A DNA stretch of 64,000 bases from an uncultured Alphaproteobacteria bacterium (GCA_963766815.1 CAVYBZ010000025.1:12883-76882), one strand, 5' to 3'; counted from the stretch's first letter, positions 23,874 through 32,673 are shown. Program-made: numbers and translations. The notes: a model not told the origin generated them from the letters alone.

Positions 23874-24493
23874 TCCTGCGTAGCCGGAAGTTCTCTTTTC
23901 GCATGCCTTCGGCTTCGCGCTTTGTCCTGCCCGCGCGGCTTGGCGCCGCAAGGGAACGCGGCTCCCCCCTTCGCGGTGCGGGCTTACAACGCCGGACCTA
24001 ATAATCCAGGCGATCGGGAAGGCGTTTCGCAGCCTCTTTACTGGAAGACGCGTTTTTGAATCTCCGGCGCCGCCCTCGAAAACAGAGAGGGCCACGGGGC
24101 AGCCGAGCCCTCGCGTTAAGAAGGAGGCGAGGTCTTCGCGCGAATGACAGACCTCCCGGCTCCGTCGGCGATGAGCCGAAGCTTGCTTCCAGTGTTCAGG
24201 CGCGGGCGTCCAAGGCCGGGATGGGGTCGAAGGCTGGCTGAACGCCGCCGTTCCGGCCAGCGTCTGAGAAAGGTCAGTCATGCGGCACTCCCAAGTAATG
24301 GTCGATGCCGATGATTTTCGGGATGGGCTGGGCTTCACAGCCTTTCTTTCGGCGATCCGCCTTATGAACCAACCTCCCCGTAAGCCTAATTGGTAACGGT
24401 TAGGGTTCCACAACCTTTCGAATCTGTTAACGTCGACGCAAGCCTAAGGGGTGGAGAGGTCTAGATTTTCGCCATCGACGCGGACTGCACGCC

Positions 24494-25486
24494 ATGATGA
24501 CAAAGGGAAATCCCGTGCGCTTGCCGCAAGCCAATCCTGGATGCCTCCAGGTCATTGCCCCTGCCGGATTGGCCGCCGCCTACATCGCGGCGCAAAGGGA
24601 AGGGTGCACCAGGACGGACGCATGCGCGGCTCTTTCAGACTTCTTCGAAGCCGGACCAGTTTTTGAGGAAGCGGTGAAAGTTGCGCTGATCGGGGAGCGC
24701 GATGGCTTGCTTCACGCGGCGGCGCCGAGCGCCAACGGAGCAGGGCATCGGGCCGCAAGCTGGGCCGACGCAAAGCGAGATTTCGCCTTCCGCGCCCTTG
24801 GGTTCGAACCCGCCGCTGCAAAGGAAATCCGCGCGCCGAGAGATTTGCCGGCGGCCGCGCTGCGTCAGCTGTTCGGCTTGGATAGTCTTCCGCCTTCGGC
24901 CTCGCGAGCGGAGGTCCGTTGCGAGCTTCTCCGCCGCATCTTCGCTTCTTTCGGAGATCCGCTAGTAGCGCACGTTTCAAAACCGGCGAAGGCCTTCACC
25001 TTCGATCCGATGAGCCGCGGCATCTATCTCGCCTTCGCCGGGCTCAGCTCAGGCACGGTGCTCGACGCCGACGCCGCCCTGTTGTCGTCCGCCTTTGGCG
25101 GCCCCGCAGCGACCGTCGCCGAGCTTAGCGCGACTGTCATCCGCGCCGCGCTGAAAGCGAAAGGGGCGGCGGCGGAGAAAAAAGAGGAGGCTTTTAACTT
25201 GGACGGATTCGCTGAATCGGTCAGGAAGCTTGCCCGCAGGCTCGAAACCAAACCTTATGCCGGGCGCGTCGCGATCGCTCAAGTCTACGACGCCGGGCTT
25301 GCGGCAGGCTTGGAGCTTGGCACGCTCGACGAGTTCAAGCTGCAGCTTGCCGAAGCCGCTCGCGAAGGGCTTCTCGACCTCGAACGCTACGACATTACCG
25401 GCCCATTCGATGCAGGCCTGAAAGAGCGTTCGCGTTTGCGTCTTGGGCGCGATGAGCGTCACTTCATCGTCAACCAATGGATTTAG
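24494..25486 (+). CDS. Uncharacterised helical protein (possible C-terminal winged-helix-like domain), partner of the downstream ATPase
   Basis: 330-aa Ala-rich ORF with coding-like sequence; its stop overlaps the next start by 10 nt; no family recognised with certainty. Confidence 0.7.
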   Translation: MMTKGNPVRLPQANPGCLQVIAPAGLAAAYIAAQREGCTRTDACAALSDFFEAGPVFEEAVKVALIGERDGLLHAAAPSANGAGHRAASWADAKRDFAFRALGFEPAAAKEIRAPRDLPAAALRQLFGLDSLPPSASRAEVRCELLRRIFASFGDPLVAHVSKPAKAFTFDPMSRGIYLAFAGLSSGTVLDADAALLSSAFGGPAATVAELSATVIRAALKAKGAAAEKKEEAFNLDGFAESVRKLARRLETKPYAGRVAIAQVYDAGLAAGLELGTLDEFKLQLAEAAREGLLDLERYDITGPFDAGLKERSRLRLGRDERHFIVNQWI

Positions 25487-28400
25487 CGCCCAAAATCATG
25501 GATCTCCGCCTCCAGGCTTTCATCGGTCCTGAATTCGACCGCGTTTTCGGCGCCGTGGCTTCGCTCGCAGGCGCGGCGGACGAGGAGCGCGTCGACGTGC
25601 CTGAGATCGAGGCCGAGGCCAGCGACGCCATCGCCATGATCGCGTCTCAGGCGCGCGGATTGAATCCCGACCCGGCGTCCCGCATCCTTCTCATCAAGGG
25701 CGCGACCGGAACGGGAAAAACGCACACGCTTCTGACCGCCATCCGGCGCATGCACCAGGAGGGCGGGGTCTATGCGGCGCTGTTTCCGATGGTCGATCTC
25801 GTCGCCGAAAAGGATCTCGACGCTTGGCTGTTGCGCGCGCTTGTCTCGCGCCTGCAGGAGCGCTACCTCGTGGCGTCGGGGACGCCCTCGCCTCTGGCGC
25901 GGCTTGCGGAGGCCGTCCTTCACCGGGGACAGCCGGATTTGGCGTCGGCATTCCGGCGCGACGTGTTGGGCGATGGCGGCGACGTTCGCGACTTCGATCT
26001 GCGGCCGCTGATCGTCTCGATACGGACCAAGCTTCAGAAGCTCTCACATCTTCCCGTGCCCTCCGAGGCGTTCATGACGGCGCTGCTTGGAGCGGCGGCA
26101 GGAGACGACGATTCCTTCGCCTACCTTCGCGGTCAGCCGCTGAATGTGAGCATTGGCGGGGTACGCCTCACACAGTTCGCCGAGGACCACATCGCGCGCG
26201 CGCATATCGACGCGCTTGCGAACGTAATCGGCGCAACCGGCGGCGCTCTCTTTCTCGCCTTCGACCAGCTTGAGCAGAGCCGCGTGCAAGGGTGGGAGCA
26301 GCGGTTGCGGCACCTGTTCAGCAGAGGCGCGCTACTTGCGGAAACGCTGCCCCCGCTGTGTGTCGCGTATGCCGTGCTGCCCGCGCTCTACGATACCATT
26401 TCCGCAGGAATTGACGGTTCCATCCGCGACCGCATCGAGCGTTTCGGCGCGCTTCCCGTGCGATTGAGGCCGCTGGCCCGGCGTCAGGTCGAGGCGCTGC
26501 TGAAGCGCAGGCTCGCCGAGCTTTTCGAACGCTGCGGCGCCAAGGCCGACCCGGCCGAGCCCCTCTATCCTTTTCCGGCCTGGATGCTCGCTGAGCTTGG
26601 CGGGCAAACGTCACGCTATGTTTTTGAGCTCATCCAGCAATTCCGGCGCATCTATATGGCCACGGGCGCGCTGCCTGCGCTGGAGGACATGCCGCCTCCG
26701 CCTATCGTATCGAGCGACGCCCCCGCCCCCATCCCGGTTGTTGCGGCCACGACGAATTTCGACGACAAATGGCATGGCGAGCTGACCTCCAGAACAGTTC
26801 AGCCGTCGGTCGGCAACGGCATCCAGCAAGCCGAGATCCTCGAATGGGCCGTGCAGGCGTCGGCCGTGGAGATCGATGGCGTGACGGCCATCAAGACGCG
26901 GCGCAGCGTGCGGGGCCGCGCTGGCACCGTAGTGATCGAGGCCGATTTCCAGAACAATGGGCAGAGCGTCGAGCGCCGGGAAATCGCGCTCTGCAACGAG
27001 GCTCGCGGCGCGCCCCTTGCCGAGGAAATCCGGCTGTTTCTGCGCAGCGTGAACGGCGCGCGGCCCGTCATTGTGCGCCCGCGCGGCGGACGGCTTCCGC
27101 GCTCGGGCCGGTTCATCGCGCCGCTTATCAGGGACGCGGAGGAGATGCAATCGATCATCGTTCCGCAATTCGAGATGCTGTCTTGGGAGCGCCTCGATTC
27201 CGCGCGCCACTTCTTCAGGAATTTCAAGGACGCCGCCGGCTTCGAGGCTTGGCAGCGCGACGCCCGCCCGCTGACGAAAACGGCGGCGCTCTCGGATATC
27301 GTCCAGTATCCCTATATCAAAGCCGCCGATGACGAGGAGGCCGAGGAGGAGGCGCCCGAGCAGGCCGCGCCGCCTCCGCCGCCCGAGCCTCGCCGTAAGG
27401 CGCCCGCCGCACAGTCGGTCATGCTGGGCGTGCATGAGGATGGCGGGCAGGTGCATTGGGCGCCGTTCGAGACCGAGGCGAAGCTCCTGAATTTCGGCAT
27501 CCTGATCACGGGCGATCCAGGCTCGGGCAAAACGCAGACGCTGAATGTCTTGATCGACGGCGTCGCGGGGATGGGCTTCCCGGTCTGCATTTTCGACTTC
27601 AAGAACGACTATTCGGAGCGCGGTTTCGTGCAGCGGATCGGGCTCAAGGTGCACGATGTGCGCCGCTATGGCATCCCCTTCAATCCGCTGATGCCAAGCG
27701 CCAGCGACGATGGCCAGGCTCAGCCCATCGAGCATATTTTCACCATCACGGGCGTGCTGAAGCGCGTGTTCGGCTTGGGCGACCGGCAAACGGCGACTTT
27801 GCGCGACGCCATGAAGGAAGCGTTCGAGAGGCGCGGCGTCAATCCGCAAAAGTGGGTTCACGCGGACAGCCTGCGGCCTCCGAGCTTCGACGACGTGGTC
27901 GCCATCCTGGAGGAGCAAAAGGAGGCGCGGCATCCGCAGGCGATCAGCCTGCTCGACCGCATCGCGCCGCTGTTCGAGCTGGGCCTGTTCCCGAAGTCGG
28001 ACGAGTTGCCGGTGCCTTTCGAGGCCATGCTGGACGAGCGGATGGTGCTGTCGCTGTTCGCGCTTCCGACCGACGAGATCAAGGCGGCGCTCGCCGAGCT
28101 GATCATCATCCGGCTCCACGGCGTTCTCCTGCGCCGGGTGCAGCCCCGCAAGCTCACGCGGCTGCTCGTGGTGGATGAAGCGTGGCGCGTCGCCAGCAGC
28201 GCGCATCTTGAGAGCCTGGCCCGTGAAGGCCGCGCCTTCGGAGCCGGTATCGCCATCGGCACGCAATATCCAGGCGACTTGCCGGCCGATCTATCGGGCG
28301 CGCTGGACACCAAGATCTATCTCAAGAACCAGCAGCCGGATCACAAAAAGGCGGTTGTGCGGGCGCTGTGCGGAGCGAATTCCGGTCCCGACGCGGCGCA

Positions 28401-28527
28401 TCTGCACGGCGTTTTGGAGCGCCTGACCCAGTTCGAGGGGCTGATCCAGAACCAGCAATATCTCCCCTATGCGCGCTTCAAGCTGGTGCCCTATTTCGCC
28501 AGGGTCGAGCGGACGAAGGCCGCTTAG
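25477..28527 (+). CDS. Dual P-loop ATPase: N-terminal AAA+-like domain fused to a C-terminal HerA/FtsK-like (DUF87/DptH-like) ATPase
   Basis: Walker A GATGTGKT (25699-25722) with Walker B-like LAFDQLE; second Walker A GDPGSGKT (27511-27534), IFDFKNDY, Walker B LLVVDEAW and HerA-type AREGRAFG/GTQ motifs; acidic/Pro linker before the second domain. Confidence 0.85.
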   Translation: MDLAPKIMDLRLQAFIGPEFDRVFGAVASLAGAADEERVDVPEIEAEASDAIAMIASQARGLNPDPASRILLIKGATGTGKTHTLLTAIRRMHQEGGVYAALFPMVDLVAEKDLDAWLLRALVSRLQERYLVASGTPSPLARLAEAVLHRGQPDLASAFRRDVLGDGGDVRDFDLRPLIVSIRTKLQKLSHLPVPSEAFMTALLGAAAGDDDSFAYLRGQPLNVSIGGVRLTQFAEDHIARAHIDALANVIGATGGALFLAFDQLEQSRVQGWEQRLRHLFSRGALLAETLPPLCVAYAVLPALYDTISAGIDGSIRDRIERFGALPVRLRPLARRQVEALLKRRLAELFERCGAKADPAEPLYPFPAWMLAELGGQTSRYVFELIQQFRRIYMATGALPALEDMPPPPIVSSDAPAPIPVVAATTNFDDKWHGELTSRTVQPSVGNGIQQAEILEWAVQASAVEIDGVTAIKTRRSVRGRAGTVVIEADFQNNGQSVERREIALCNEARGAPLAEEIRLFLRSVNGARPVIVRPRGGRLPRSGRFIAPLIRDAEEMQSIIVPQFEMLSWERLDSARHFFRNFKDAAGFEAWQRDARPLTKTAALSDIVQYPYIKAADDEEAEEEAPEQAAPPPPPEPRRKAPAAQSVMLGVHEDGGQVHWAPFETEAKLLNFGILITGDPGSGKTQTLNVLIDGVAGMGFPVCIFDFKNDYSERGFVQRIGLKVHDVRRYGIPFNPLMPSASDDGQAQPIEHIFTITGVLKRVFGLGDRQTATLRDAMKEAFERRGVNPQKWVHADSLRPPSFDDVVAILEEQKEARHPQAISLLDRIAPLFELGLFPKSDELPVPFEAMLDERMVLSLFALPTDEIKAALAELIIIRLHGVLLRRVQPRKLTRLLVVDEAWRVASSAHLESLAREGRAFGAGIAIGTQYPGDLPADLSGALDTKIYLKNQQPDHKKAVVRALCGANSGPDAAHLHGVLERLTQFEGLIQNQQYLPYARFKLVPYFARVERTKAA

Positions 28528-29090: not shown

Positions 29091-30281
29091 ATGGCGGACA
29101 TTTTCATCTCCTACGCGCGCTCCGACCGCGATACCGCAAGGCGGCTCGCGGCCTATCTCAAAGATTCCGGCCTCAGCGTCTGGTGGGACATGAGCCTCAA
29201 GCCGGGCGAGGTGTTCCGCGAGGAGATCGAGCGGCGCATCGGCGAGGCGCGGCACGTGATCGTGCTGTGGTCCGAGACTTCGGTGAAATCGCATTTCGTG
29301 CTGGACGAAGCGGGCGAGGCGGCGCGGCAGAATAAGCTCGTGCCGCTGCGCATCGACGGCTGCAAGCTGCCTTTGGGCTTCGGCCAGCATCATACGCATA
29401 CGGTGAGCGCTTGGCCCGGCGATCTGGCGCCCGTGCTGGCGGTTGTCGGCAGCGGCAAGGTGCCCGCCCAATCCGCATCGGCTTCGGTCCAAACCGCTCA
29501 AGATTTCTTCAAGAGCGCTTACGCCGCCAAAGATGCGGGAGATTTCGACCAAGCGATTTCCGACTACAGCGAAGCGATACGCCTGAAGCCGGATGACGCA
29601 ATCGCCTACAACAATCGCGGCAACGCCTTTCTTGCGAAAGGCGATAATGACCGGGCCATCGCCGATTACGATCAAGCGATACGCCTGAAGCCGGATGACG
29701 CAATCGCCTACAACAATCGCGGCAACGCCTTTCTTGCGAAAGGCGATAATGACCGGGCCATCGCCGATTACGATCAAGCGATACGCCTGAAGCCGGATTA
29801 CGCGGACGCCTACTACAATCGCGGCAACGCCTATTACGCGAAAGGCGACAAGGACCGAGCCATCGCCGATTACGATCAAGCGATACGCCTGAAGCCGGAT
29901 GACGCAAGGCCCTACAACAATCGCGGCAACGCCTATCACGCGAAAGGCGACCATGACAGCGCCATCGCCGATTACGATCAAGCGATCCGACTACAGCCGG
30001 ATTACGCACCCGCCTACTGCAATCGCGGCAACGCCTATCACGCGAAAGGCGACCATGACAGCGCCATCGCCGATTACGATCAAGCGATCCGCCTGAAACC
30101 GGATGATGCAGACGCCTACAACGGGCGCGGCCTCTCCTATTACCGCAAAGGGGATTATGCGCGAGCGATCAGCGATTATGATCGGGCGCTCGGGATCGAT
30201 CCCAATCACAAGCTGGTCGCAGAGAATAAGGCGCTTGCGGAGAAGAAGCTTGCGAAGGCCAAGAAGAAGGGTTGGTTTTAG
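29091..30281 (+). CDS. TIR domain protein with seven C-terminal TPRs
   Basis: N-terminal DIFISYARSD...VWWD...IVLWSETSVKSHFVLDEA (TIR_2-type, catalytic-position Glu retained); seven 34-aa repeats of type AYNNRGNA..AKGD.D.AIADYDQAIRLKPD. Confidence 0.9.
   Translation: MADIFISYARSDRDTARRLAAYLKDSGLSVWWDMSLKPGEVFREEIERRIGEARHVIVLWSETSVKSHFVLDEAGEAARQNKLVPLRIDGCKLPLGFGQHHTHTVSAWPGDLAPVLAVVGSGKVPAQSASASVQTAQDFFKSAYAAKDAGDFDQAISDYSEAIRLKPDDAIAYNNRGNAFLAKGDNDRAIADYDQAIRLKPDDAIAYNNRGNAFLAKGDNDRAIADYDQAIRLKPDYADAYYNRGNAYYAKGDKDRAIADYDQAIRLKPDDARPYNNRGNAYHAKGDHDSAIADYDQAIRLQPDYAPAYCNRGNAYHAKGDHDSAIADYDQAIRLKPDDADAYNGRGLSYYRKGDYARAISDYDRALGIDPNHKLVAENKALAEKKLAKAKKKGWF
29496..30209 (+). repeat. Coding tandem repeat, 7 x 102 nt (TPR units)
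   Basis: 102-nt periodicity; 29572-29798 is a perfect period-102 duplication. Confidence 0.9.
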
Positions 30282-30345
30282 GGCGCGGGCTTGCCGCCGC
30301 TTGCTCAATCGCTTTTCCAAGCGCCCCGTGCTAGAACACTATACA

Positions 30346-30594
30346 ATGACAGACCTCTTGCAAAACGCCTTCGAAACCGTGCGCCGCCTGCCGCCAGAGG
30401 CGCAGGATCAGATCGCGGAAGCCATATTGGCGCTGGCCACCGGAGGGGCGGCGCCGGATCGCGCGTTGTTCCAGGTCTGCCCCGAGGTGGATGCCGAGTT
30501 TCTTGCGCGCCTCGACGAGCCGCAGCAGCCCAATGAGCGTTTACGAAAAACCATGCAGGCGTCCATTCATATCTATCTATTGAAAAGGAATAGC
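30346..30594 (+). pseudogene. Chimeric antitoxin-like remnants (small helical antitoxin-like N-terminus plus DUF1778/TacA-like C-terminal fragment)
   Basis: MTDLLQNAFETVRRLPPEAQDQIAEAILALA followed in frame by LFQVCPEVDAEFLARLDEPQQPNERLRKTMQ, which resembles the DUF1778 C-terminus; reads through into the CopG gene. Confidence 0.45.
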
Positions 30595-30870
30595 ATGGCA
30601 GGCCCCGACACCGCAGAGCTGACGGCACATGTGCCCTTGGCGCTGGCCGAGAAAATCGACCGGCTCGCGGAACGGGATGAACGCTCGCGCGCCTCGATCG
30701 TCAAGGAAGCGCTGATCGCCTGGGTCGAGCAGGAAGAAGAGCGCGACCGGCTGACCCGCGAGGCCCTGGCCGATGTGGACGCCGGGCGGTTAATCGATCA
30801 TCGGGACGTGCAATCATGGGCCGATAGCCTCGGCGCCGGGGAGCCGAAGCCGCTTCCGGCCGCCCGGTGA
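30595..30870 (+). CDS. CopG/ribbon-helix-helix antitoxin (ParD-like)
   Basis: AAAAGGAA RBS then ATG 30595; LTAHVPLALAEKIDRLAERDERSRASIVKEAL...EALADVDAGRLIDH; its TGA overlaps the toxin ATG. Confidence 0.8.
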   Translation: MAGPDTAELTAHVPLALAEKIDRLAERDERSRASIVKEALIAWVEQEEERDRLTREALADVDAGRLIDHRDVQSWADSLGAGEPKPLPAAR

Positions 30871-31123
30871 TGGATGTCCAGTGGACAAGCGAGGGCACGA
30901 TTTTCTGGCGCCGGTAAACAAGCTTGCGGCGGCGCGCGTCGCGCAATCGCTGACGGCGGCGGCGTCCAAGCTCCCCGCCAACCCTCGTATCGGCAGGAAG
31001 CTGGAGCAGTTCGAACCGCGCGAGGTTCGCCGCATCTTCGCCGGCGATTACGAAATGCGCTATGAAATCGCGGGATCGACGATCTACGTGCTCAGAATTT
31101 GGCATACGAAAGAAAATCGCTGA
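30870..31123 (+). pseudogene. RelE/ParE family toxin with a frameshifting deletion near the N-terminus
   Basis: ATG 30870 gives MDVQWTSE; the rest (HDFLAPVNK...NPRIGRKLE...EMRYEI...VLRIWHTKENR) is in another frame, and the usual helix between them appears to be missing. Confidence 0.75.
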
Positions 31124-31938: not shown

Positions 31939-32673
31939 ATGCTTGCTACAACGCTTCAGCGTGATACATCGGCGCTTCTTCACGATGCAGGGGCTTCACG
32001 GGTCCTTATTTGCGGTAAGTCTTTTATCGCCGATCCGACAGGCGCCCTTTTTCGGCCGGCTGAGAACACGCTTATTGTCGCCGACCTGCAACTTTCGAAG
32101 TGCTCCTATCTCGAAGGGGAGGACGTGGTCCTTCCTCCCTACGATACGGCATCGGCTTTCGAGAAACTTGAGGACGCGCTCGACCGCTACGATCCTCTCC
32201 GCGTCATCGCGCTCGGCAACAGTTTTGCCGGGTTCACTTCGGACGGCCTTAGCCATCATCAGAGCGACTGGCTTCAGGATATGATGGAGGGGCGTGAGTG
32301 GTATTGGGTGGCGTCGGATCTTTGCCCGCCGCCTGACGGGATCGGTGGCACGGCCGTGCCGCAGATGATGCTCGGCGGCATCAAGTTTCGTGCGGAGCCG
32401 GTTCGCGCGCCTGTCGCCAATGAGATTGCCGGGGGCTTGCATCCGGTGGCGCAGGTCTCGCATTACGGCCACCTCGTTCGCGGGCGCTGCTTCGTCTCGA
32501 ACGGCATGCGGATGATCCTGCCGTCGCTCGGCAATTACTCCTCCGGAACCAATGTGCTAAGTTCGGCCTTCGATCCTCTTCTCGGCCAGGGCGGCTTGTT
32601 CGTATGGTTCATCTCTCAAGAGCGGGTGTCTTCGGTGGCGTCTCCCCAGCTCATGGAAGACCGCGCCGCTTAG
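31939..32673 (+). CDS. PdeM-like (ligase-associated DNA damage response) metallophosphoesterase homologue with degenerate active site
   Basis: Overall match to the PdeM pattern (ADPTGAL..P...LIVADL, LPPYDT, IALG.SF, FR.EP, LHP, R.RCF, ILPSLG.Y..G.NV), but most metal ligands are substituted. Confidence 0.75.
   Translation: MLATTLQRDTSALLHDAGASRVLICGKSFIADPTGALFRPAENTLIVADLQLSKCSYLEGEDVVLPPYDTASAFEKLEDALDRYDPLRVIALGNSFAGFTSDGLSHHQSDWLQDMMEGREWYWVASDLCPPPDGIGGTAVPQMMLGGIKFRAEPVRAPVANEIAGGLHPVAQVSHYGHLVRGRCFVSNGMRMILPSLGNYSSGTNVLSSAFDPLLGQGGLFVWFISQERVSSVASPQLMEDRAA

Follow-up and report, generated by a model that had tools for sequence, protein, structure and literature searches.

The 64,000-nucleotide stretch of DNA analysed here (the window; GCA_963766815.1, CAVYBZ010000025.1:12883-76882), from an uncultured Alphaproteobacteria bacterium, encodes a two-gene module, A-B, in which a large protein with two ATPase domains (B) is preceded by a smaller partner (A). 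The module matches the published architecture of the ORC/Cdc6-HerA/FtsK 'capture' systems in everything testable except for a missing active nuclease. Because the order and identity of its domains match those systems (PMC10853773), A is an obligate neighbour of B, and relatives occur in mobile or defence contexts, we read A-B as a nuclease-less, chromosomally fixed variant of these predicted anti-mobile-element systems, a reading to which we give an even chance. New here are a variant that lacks the nuclease and appears to be retained vertically, and the close relation of its motor to those of co-resident mobile elements; the module itself is conserved and experimentally uncharacterised.

Capture systems were defined in silico by Rakesh, Aravind and Krishnan (NAR 2024, PMC10853773) as Orc/CDC6-iREase-wHTH-HerA/FtsK systems, and the theme has been restated since (PMC12839542). 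Their neighbourhoods contain an Orc/CDC6 ATPase, an inactive restriction endonuclease-like domain (iREase) inserted between the AAA+ core and its winged helix-turn-helix (wHTH), an active restriction endonuclease (REase), a HerA/FtsK ATPase, and a wHTH (PMC10853773). One version of the HerA/FtsK ATPase carries a four-helix insert and has no FtsK-alpha domain, and a subset of the systems includes a rapidly evolving multi-wHTH protein related to DndG/SspB (PMC10853773). The ORC module was proposed to localise the apparatus on DNA, and the HerA/FtsK ATPase to intercept invader DNA or pump it to the nuclease (PMC10853773). The original prediction, made from the window alone, had presented A-B as the top candidate for an undescribed system. 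That part of it falls, since the same domain combination, including a fast-evolving winged-helix partner in some loci, has been described computationally (PMC10853773, PMC12839542). Overall, its observations are confirmed and its interpretation is partly supported.

Both open reading frames, of 330 and 1016 amino acids (aa), lie where they had been predicted, and all of the quoted motifs were found in the translations. A and B are genuine coding genes and not chance frames of high G+C content. Homologues number 200 for A and 113 for full-length B (52-91% identity), pairwise dN/dS is 0.07-0.30 across every region of both genes, and both Walker A/B sets of B are unchanged in relatives down to 28% identity. 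A 10-nucleotide (nt) overlap, taken at first as a sign of translational coupling, exists only if B begins at its first ATG (25477). The start codon kept among the relatives of B is Met8 (ATG 25498), which leaves a gap of 11 nt after the A stop codon, and the gaps between called genes in relatives are 3-22 nt (about 100 nt in L071; surveyed loci are cited by such numbers). Overlap-based coupling is thus unestablished, and the linkage of the two genes is tight. The genes and the parts of B are as follows.

24494-25486, + strand: gene A, 330 aa, predicted non-catalytic, mostly helical partner
25477-28527, + strand: gene B, 1016 aa from ATG 25477, conserved start ATG 25498
25609-26676, + strand: B residues 45-400, ORC/Cdc6-like AAA+ ATPase (Pfam, Foldseek, conservation)
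25699-25722, + strand: AAA+ Walker A GATGTGKT, B residues 75-82
26254-26274, + strand: AAA+ Walker B LAFDQLE, B residues 260-266
26419-26439, + strand: AAA+ conserved arginine motif SIRDRIE
26809-27111, + strand: B residues 445-545, predicted restriction-endonuclease-like domain (iREase) (AlphaFold2 (AF2) topology)
27112-27312, + strand: B residues 546-612, helical region, probable winged helix (AF2 helices 548-609, conservation)
27313-27441, + strand: B residues 613-655, Pro/Ala/Glu-rich flexible linker (low pLDDT, length varies in the alignment)
27442-28524, + strand: B residues 656-1016, HerA/FtsK ATPase of the DndH/DptH type (sequence evidence)
27511-27534, + strand: HerA/FtsK Walker A GDPGSGKT, B residues 679-686
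B residues 707-712, + strand: HerA/FtsK motif DFKNDY
27724-27978, + strand: HerA/FtsK four-helix insert, B residues 750-834 (AF2 helices)
28168-28185, + strand: HerA/FtsK Walker B VVDEAW, B residues 898-903
28222-28242, + strand: HerA/FtsK Arg-finger region REGRAFG, B residues 916-922
28264-28266, + strand: HerA/FtsK sensor-1 Q930 (IGTQ930)

The expectation of two different ATPases in B is borne out. From its N-terminus, B consists of an ORC/Cdc6-like AAA+ domain, a REase-like domain, a helical/winged-helix region, a Pro/Ala/Glu linker, and a DndH(DptH)-type HerA/FtsK domain. The AAA+ domain matches AAA_22, AAA_16, and NPHP3_N in Pfam, and the best Foldseek matches of the B N-terminus are Cdc6 (7jgr_G) and Orc1/Cdc6 (2qby_A; E 9e-3, probability 1.0), followed by RdrA and BrxC. 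Residues G80, K81, D263, Q264, E266, and R319 are invariant in this domain across relatives. The motor matches HerA_C, TrwB, and DUF87 in Pfam, and the PADLOC models for DndH (3.5e-29, B residues 615-930 only), mad8 (1.5e-20), and HerA (about 1e-4, 6e-5 or worse). Its PDB sequence match is the C-terminal domain of DptH (7es4, 2.4e-12), which is also the best Foldseek match of the motor, ahead of VirB4.

Between the two ATPases, AF2 models B residues 448-533 with an alpha-beta-beta-beta-alpha-beta order (pLDDT 82-91), the topology of a REase core, and helices come next. E465 is the sole invariant residue of this domain, and the position expected from the strand order to hold the catalytic Lys is R or W. 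Since D/ExK is not kept in residues 445-545, the REase-like domain is predicted to be inactive. It is under strong constraint (dN/dS, or omega, 0.09). The middle domain has no match in sequence and profile searches of Pfam, NCBIfam, PADLOC, and PDB-sequence. In the helical region that follows, W570 and W592 are invariant, and residues 546-612 probably form a winged-helix region. Omega is 0.24 in the linker.

A is mostly helical and shows no catalytic domain, as had been supposed; the AF2 model (pLDDT 74.7) and empty library searches support this. In the model, a winged helix at the N-terminus and a winged-helix-like module at the C-terminus flank a helical middle; two of these parts can be delimited.

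24560-24718, + strand: A residues 23-75, predicted winged helix, helix-helix-helix-strand-strand (AF2 secondary structure)
25199-25483, + strand: A residues 236-330, near-invariant C-terminal module, predicted winged-helix-like (conservation, AF2)

The two ends of A evolve very differently. Among 30 sequences, the last 95 residues are almost unchanged and the first 235 are variable; the N-terminal part has a dN of 0.46 and the highest omega of the module (0.30), and the C-terminal part a dN of 0.08 and an omega of 0.07. The N-terminus of A evolves four to eight times faster than B, which we count in favour of the capture reading. The C-terminal module is a probable docking surface for B, to judge from its conservation. 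Neither A nor any of its three sub-regions matches an entry in Pfam, NCBIfam, PADLOC, or PDB-sequence, and similarity of A to PADLOC models is undetectable, including DndG/SspB entries if the library has them. Foldseek gave nothing significant with the A model: the best match was chain E of a JetABC complex (E 1.2), and winged-helix matches were weak and local.

The homologues of the pair identify the source of the window as Rhodomicrobium (Hyphomicrobiales). To survey the pair, one genome per species was scanned, which gave 68 loci, 57 of them with full-length B. A lies immediately 5' of B in 56 of the 57, and the exception is a contig that starts inside B; the anticipated co-occurrence of the two genes therefore holds at all loci where it can be checked. 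Apart from one probably mis-binned contig, the hosts are Rhodomicrobium, Rhodomicrobiaceae, or Hyphomicrobiales genomes or metagenome-assembled genomes (MAGs). They include the cultured type strain Rhodomicrobium vannielii ATCC 17100, in whose complete genome the pair is Rvan_0171/0172. One MAG carries two copies (L044 and L050), an observation that favours the capture reading. A word-limited homologue search found no full-length homologues outside Rhodomicrobium/Rhodomicrobiaceae/Hyphomicrobiales, and a search of plasmid and phage collections no full-length member. About 15 clusters of full-length members, at a level of 50% identity, came out of an exhaustive profile search. The downstream flank of the window is common to 20 loci, and the upstream flanks form several clusters and many singletons.

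Distant relatives of the pair form a three-gene operon of a DUF559 endonuclease gene, an A-like gene, and a B-like gene, found in Xanthobacter sp. V2C-8 (L073), on an integrative and conjugative element (ICE) of Rhodomicrobium sp. (L074), and in a metagenome (L075). The DUF559 genes are upstream and encode proteins of 270-284 aa with a C-terminal DUF559 (Vsr/REase-like) domain. The proteins of the middle genes are homologous to A (E 1e-13 to 6e-25), and cluster representatives of this clade share 32-34% identity with B along its entire length. L074 lies amid a caspase gene, a Gabija-like pair (GajB 3e-51), and the genes of a Trb type IV secretion system. The conjugative Xanthobacter plasmid pXAUT01 (L076, Xaut_4853-4855) has an A-like gene and a B-like gene truncated by an insertion sequence (IS). 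The B-like fragment comprises the N-terminal 455 aa; IS3-family transposase genes lie directly downstream, and alkene monooxygenase genes adjoin. The C-terminal module is the part of A that can still be aligned to the A-like proteins of the three-gene operons and pXAUT01. A tblastn search of the window and L001-L072 found no DUF559 or other nuclease and no DUF559 remnant, nor was a decayed DUF559 gene found in the 620-nt spacer between rplQ and A in the window. The idea that the HerA motor works with a nuclease thus holds for the distant relatives, through their DUF559 gene, and not for the window's clade.

The motor of B also has close paralogues on mobile elements. At L053 (9482-13577), L054, and L057, the last in the same MAG as L015, MAGs with A-B encode 647-682-aa proteins that have a HerA/FtsK domain with 76-81% identity to the motor of B. 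An unknown protein (370-464 aa) is encoded ahead of the paralogue in L053 and L057, and Prim-Pol and VapE come after the paralogue in L053. Nearby are GcrA-like, Phd, CHAT-TPR, patatin, and transposase genes. In a neighbour-joining tree, which carries no support values, the mobile-element motors nest between two A-B clades, suggesting recent domain exchange between B and the elements. Elsewhere, motors of this HerA/FtsK clade are joined to N-termini of other kinds: DptH-like (in proteins of about 1500 and 1800 aa), dynamin-like, and REase-containing. We count both these fusions and the mobile-element paralogues in favour of the capture reading. One locus (L062) encodes a DruA+SspF-like fusion of 1290 aa, a protein similar to SspG, and a DptH-like protein of 1519 aa with an ATPase 45-50% identical to that of B, and resembles a hybrid of the Druantia, Ssp, and Dpt types. 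L063 and L065 have the same sizes and order of open reading frames, and all three are from Myxococcales or Planctomycetaceae.

If A-B is a capture system, A would act as a specificity adaptor, the ORC-like module as an ATP-gated DNA loader, and the HerA/FtsK domain as a pump. A may bind B through its invariant C-terminal module and contact DNA or an invader component through its N-terminal winged helix. By analogy with ORC/Cdc6 and BrxC biology, the AAA+ domain would be an ATP-dependent switch that recognises target DNA and loads onto it, and the inactive REase-fold and helical/wHTH domains may serve as DNA-binding surfaces. The flexible linker would let B place the HerA/FtsK ring on duplex DNA, after which pumping, as in DndH and FtsK, would follow. 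In the three-gene relatives, the DUF559 endonuclease would cut the captured DNA. Since no nuclease is encoded in the window's clade, interference there would have to proceed through translocation itself, through competition or co-assembly with the closely similar motors of resident PrimPol-VapE elements, or through a nuclease provided in trans. A more specific scenario, which we hold to be distinctly unlikely, is that a former restriction-type capture system lost its nuclease, was fixed family-wide in Rhodomicrobiaceae, and is now a two-motor machine that either disables resident PrimPol-VapE elements, whose nearly identical HerA/FtsK motor it would poison or mimic, or was co-opted to move or guard the chromosome of these bacteria.

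Several findings weigh against the capture reading, and some of them point to a domesticated cellular function instead. Our literature search found no experimental study of ORC/Cdc6-HerA/FtsK fusions, a class that is computational so far, and no phage, plasmid, or conjugation phenotype for any member. PADLOC v2 has the DndH and mad8 models that match the motor; it has no system-level model for the module and none for A, DUF559, or the N-terminus of B. The REase-fold and winged-helix assignments are predictions drawn only from AF2 topology, and AF2 models the HerA core of B poorly, so the motor assignment rests on sequence. The window's clade is without a nuclease or other effector. A defence or surveillance role, as first proposed, accords with the defence or mobile contexts of the wider family; the window's clade is chromosomal and partly syntenic. 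Synteny of this kind, which the original prediction had taken to speak against itself, is seen in part within Rhodomicrobiaceae and weakens the notion of defence-island cargo. Domestication, the main rival, would mean that an ex-conflict system without a nuclease was fixed for chromosome handling, segregation, or repair in the budding, filament-forming Rhodomicrobiaceae, which we regard as possible, though on the unlikely side. The pair is kept in about 55 species-level genomes, usually as a single copy, which is atypical of patchy defence cargo; the identity of B tracks that of its syntenic neighbours, many loci have the downstream flank in common, and partial synteny is accompanied by housekeeping neighbours in R. 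vannielii, L071, and L072. Purifying selection on the pair is strong, with an omega of 0.07-0.12 in all B domains, the 'inactive' REase-like one included. The loss of the DUF559 nuclease, a leader motif with GANTC and TTAAC elements, and a PdeM-like gene directly downstream in the genus clade (both described below) would also fit a cellular role. Less easily explained by domestication are the fast-evolving N-terminus of A, the duplicate in one MAG, the highly variable upstream flanks, and a downstream junction that gathers TIR and toxin-antitoxin cargo. The close motor paralogues on mobile elements, the relatives on an ICE and a plasmid, and the absence of more distant full-length hosts from the word-limited search likewise oppose it.

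Three further explanations are disfavoured because context, distribution, and selection data oppose them. That B is a mobile element's own DNA-transfer, coupling, or partition ATPase, and not a host system, we consider improbable. The motor has weak Pfam/NCBIfam matches to TrwB, TraC, VirB4, and TraD, and its clade occurs beside PrimPol and VapE on mobile elements. However, the transfer-ATPase matches are far under the family cut-offs, the flanks, for about 5 kb each way, contain no genes for an integrase, a relaxase, type IV secretion, or replication, and the position is stable across the genus. A membrane-anchored coupling-protein N-terminus was not among the matches reported, and no transmembrane prediction was made. 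It is still less probable that A-B is a sensor that signals to the TIR-TPR protein encoded immediately 3' in the window, L002, L004, and L015, as an effector of NAD-depleting, abortive-infection style: ORC/Cdc6 proteins have been linked to TIR fusions in the literature (PMC10853773) and this TIR is like defence TIRs, but the gene is missing from about 50 of the 57 A-B loci, R. vannielii included, and it lies in a variable insert, 560 nt from B, with its own promoter-like site. A decaying remnant without function is barely credible. Compared with the three-gene relatives, the module has lost its nuclease gene, and the pXAUT01 copy is IS-truncated; however, the two reading frames are uninterrupted, none of the ATPase motifs varies, and omega stays far under 1 in many species.

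The sequence upstream of A contains a conserved leader, and B is overlapped by a long antisense frame.

24403-24493, + strand: conserved leader of A, with motif TTCGAATCTGTTAAC at 24417-24431
26611-28266, - strand: antisense open reading frame, 551 aa, wholly within B

Nucleotide homology with relatives starts abruptly at about 24402, some 92 nt 5' of A. The motif TTCGAATCTGTTAAC, about 70 nt 5' of A, is kept at >=80% across 35 aligned leaders and includes GANTC, a CcrM site, and TTAAC, which resembles a CtrA half-site; regulation by the cell cycle is therefore possible. It is a candidate promoter or operator. The locus is present in metagenomes from moss, peat, and soil, and none of the RNA runs that were searched contain it. 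The A-B segment has the highest G+C content of the window (0.649 vs 0.593), and G+C at third codon positions is 0.81 in B vs 0.69-0.73 in rpoA, secY, TauE, and Sel1, which we count towards the capture reading; this may reflect a foreign origin or distinct codon usage. The antisense frame is most likely no gene but an artefact of the high G+C content, because the + strand there is a conserved, selected frame.

In the window, the pair is preceded by the ribosomal cluster secY-adk-rpsK-rpoA-rplQ. The spacer between rplQ and the A leader (23874-24402, about 530 nt) has no counterpart in relatives except for a 94-nt match (24199-24292) to the region upstream of L001. The rplQ-A junction is unique to the window yet real, because independent unitigs tile across it; an assembly artefact is thereby ruled out. 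A 3.4-kb insert with TIR-TPR and RHH/ParE-like genes lies 3' of B and is followed by a PdeM-like gene, TauE, and a Sel1 protein.

29091-30281, + strand: TIR-TPR gene, N-terminal TIR_2 (1e-22) and seven TPR repeats
30340-31123, + strand: RHH/TacA-like antitoxin region and RelE/ParE-like open reading frame (80 aa at 30881-31123)
31939-32673, + strand: PdeM-like gene, 243 aa, ligase-associated DNA-damage-response phosphoesterase (TIGR04123 1.5e-34, under the family cut-off)

The junction downstream of B is a cargo hotspot, a further point for the capture reading, and the genes between B and the PdeM-like gene differ among loci, with TIR-TPR in the four named above and RHH genes in others. The TPR repeats are encoded by near-identical DNA repeats, and the TIR domain resembles those of SAVED-TIR, pAgo-associated TIR, PDC-S66, and ThsB. 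The RHH/TacA-like and RelE/ParE-like genes of the variable insert have the appearance of a toxin-antitoxin pair; the 80-aa putative toxin has no NCBIfam or PADLOC match. The PdeM-like gene is kept directly 3' of B in the Rhodomicrobium genus clade, and its homologue is undetected in the 57% clade. By eye, the metal-ligand motifs of its product look degenerate (ADLQLSK, LGNSF). Given these points and the score below the cut-off, it was rejected as the missing nuclease and is treated as a neighbour, not a component, of A-B.

Fusions of ORC/Cdc6 and HerA/FtsK have so far been purely computational objects, and this clade has a member in a cultured strain, R. vannielii ATCC 17100. The two-gene, nuclease-less and the three-gene, DUF559-containing versions are a natural contrast, which makes it testable whether a HerA/FtsK pump and an ORC-like switch can act against invading DNA without a nuclease, and whether such systems become domesticated. 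If true, a mimicry, poisoning, or chromosome version would be a new mode of action for these fusions. The kinship of the B motor with the motors of co-resident elements illustrates concretely how invader-like domains may be 'captured', as has been proposed.

Compared with known systems, A-B has a single ATPase domain in common with most, and DptFGH, MADS, Sir2-HerA, BREX, and a type IV secretion coupling protein were rejected on this ground and for the absence of partner genes. DptH/DndH of DptFGH (DndFGH) shares the C-terminal HerA/FtsK ATPase; however, DptH, at about 1700 aa, is built of eight domains (SNF2-C-like, beta-sandwich, TRD, inactive methylase, and active REase among them) and is partnered by DptF and DptG; neither the listed domains nor the partners are present here. 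With MADS mad8, Sir2-HerA, and DUF4297-HerA only the HerA/FtsK-superfamily motor is shared: the mad8 match does not extend beyond the ATPase, a Pfam search of the flanking open reading frames gave neither a methyltransferase nor any other mad-like gene, and A gives no Sir2 or DUF4297 signal. An identity as a coupling protein or VirB4 is contradicted by scores of 38 bits for TraC (cut-off 567) and 29 for VirB4 (cut-off 590), with no type IV secretion genes nearby. In BrxC/PglY of BREX and in the BREX-related HerA/FtsK capture system, as in B, wHTH and alpha+beta domains come after an AAA+ domain of the ORC/Cdc6 clade; the likeness to BrxC is one of fold only and concerns the N-terminus of B, AAA+ and HerA are here in a single polypeptide, and the flanks contain no PglZ, PglX, BrxA, or BrxB.

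The likeness is far greater to the three-gene operons, in which A and B have homologues over their whole length and gene order and tight linkage are alike. The operons differ in the extra upstream DUF559 gene and, for L074, in the location in a defence island on a conjugative element. From the published capture systems, A-B differs in two respects. Their core has an active REase, whereas none is encoded here and DUF559 is found only in L073-L075. The window's clade also appears chromosomally fixed and vertically retained, and not in an obviously mobile neighbourhood: its setting is one of partial chromosomal synteny with variable flanks, and relatives are found on an ICE and a conjugative plasmid. 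Two further features may be similar. A REase-like domain, seen in AF2 topology and without a profile match, lies between the AAA+ and helical regions, and A has a fast-evolving N-terminus and AF2-predicted winged-helix-like ends, without a significant fold match. The two ATPases are shared outright, with an Orc/CDC6 AAA+ domain (AAA_22 and AAA_16, Cdc6/Orc1 folds, invariant Walker sets and arginine) and a DndH-related HerA/FtsK domain that has the Q sensor-1, the upstream Arg finger, and the four-helix insert.

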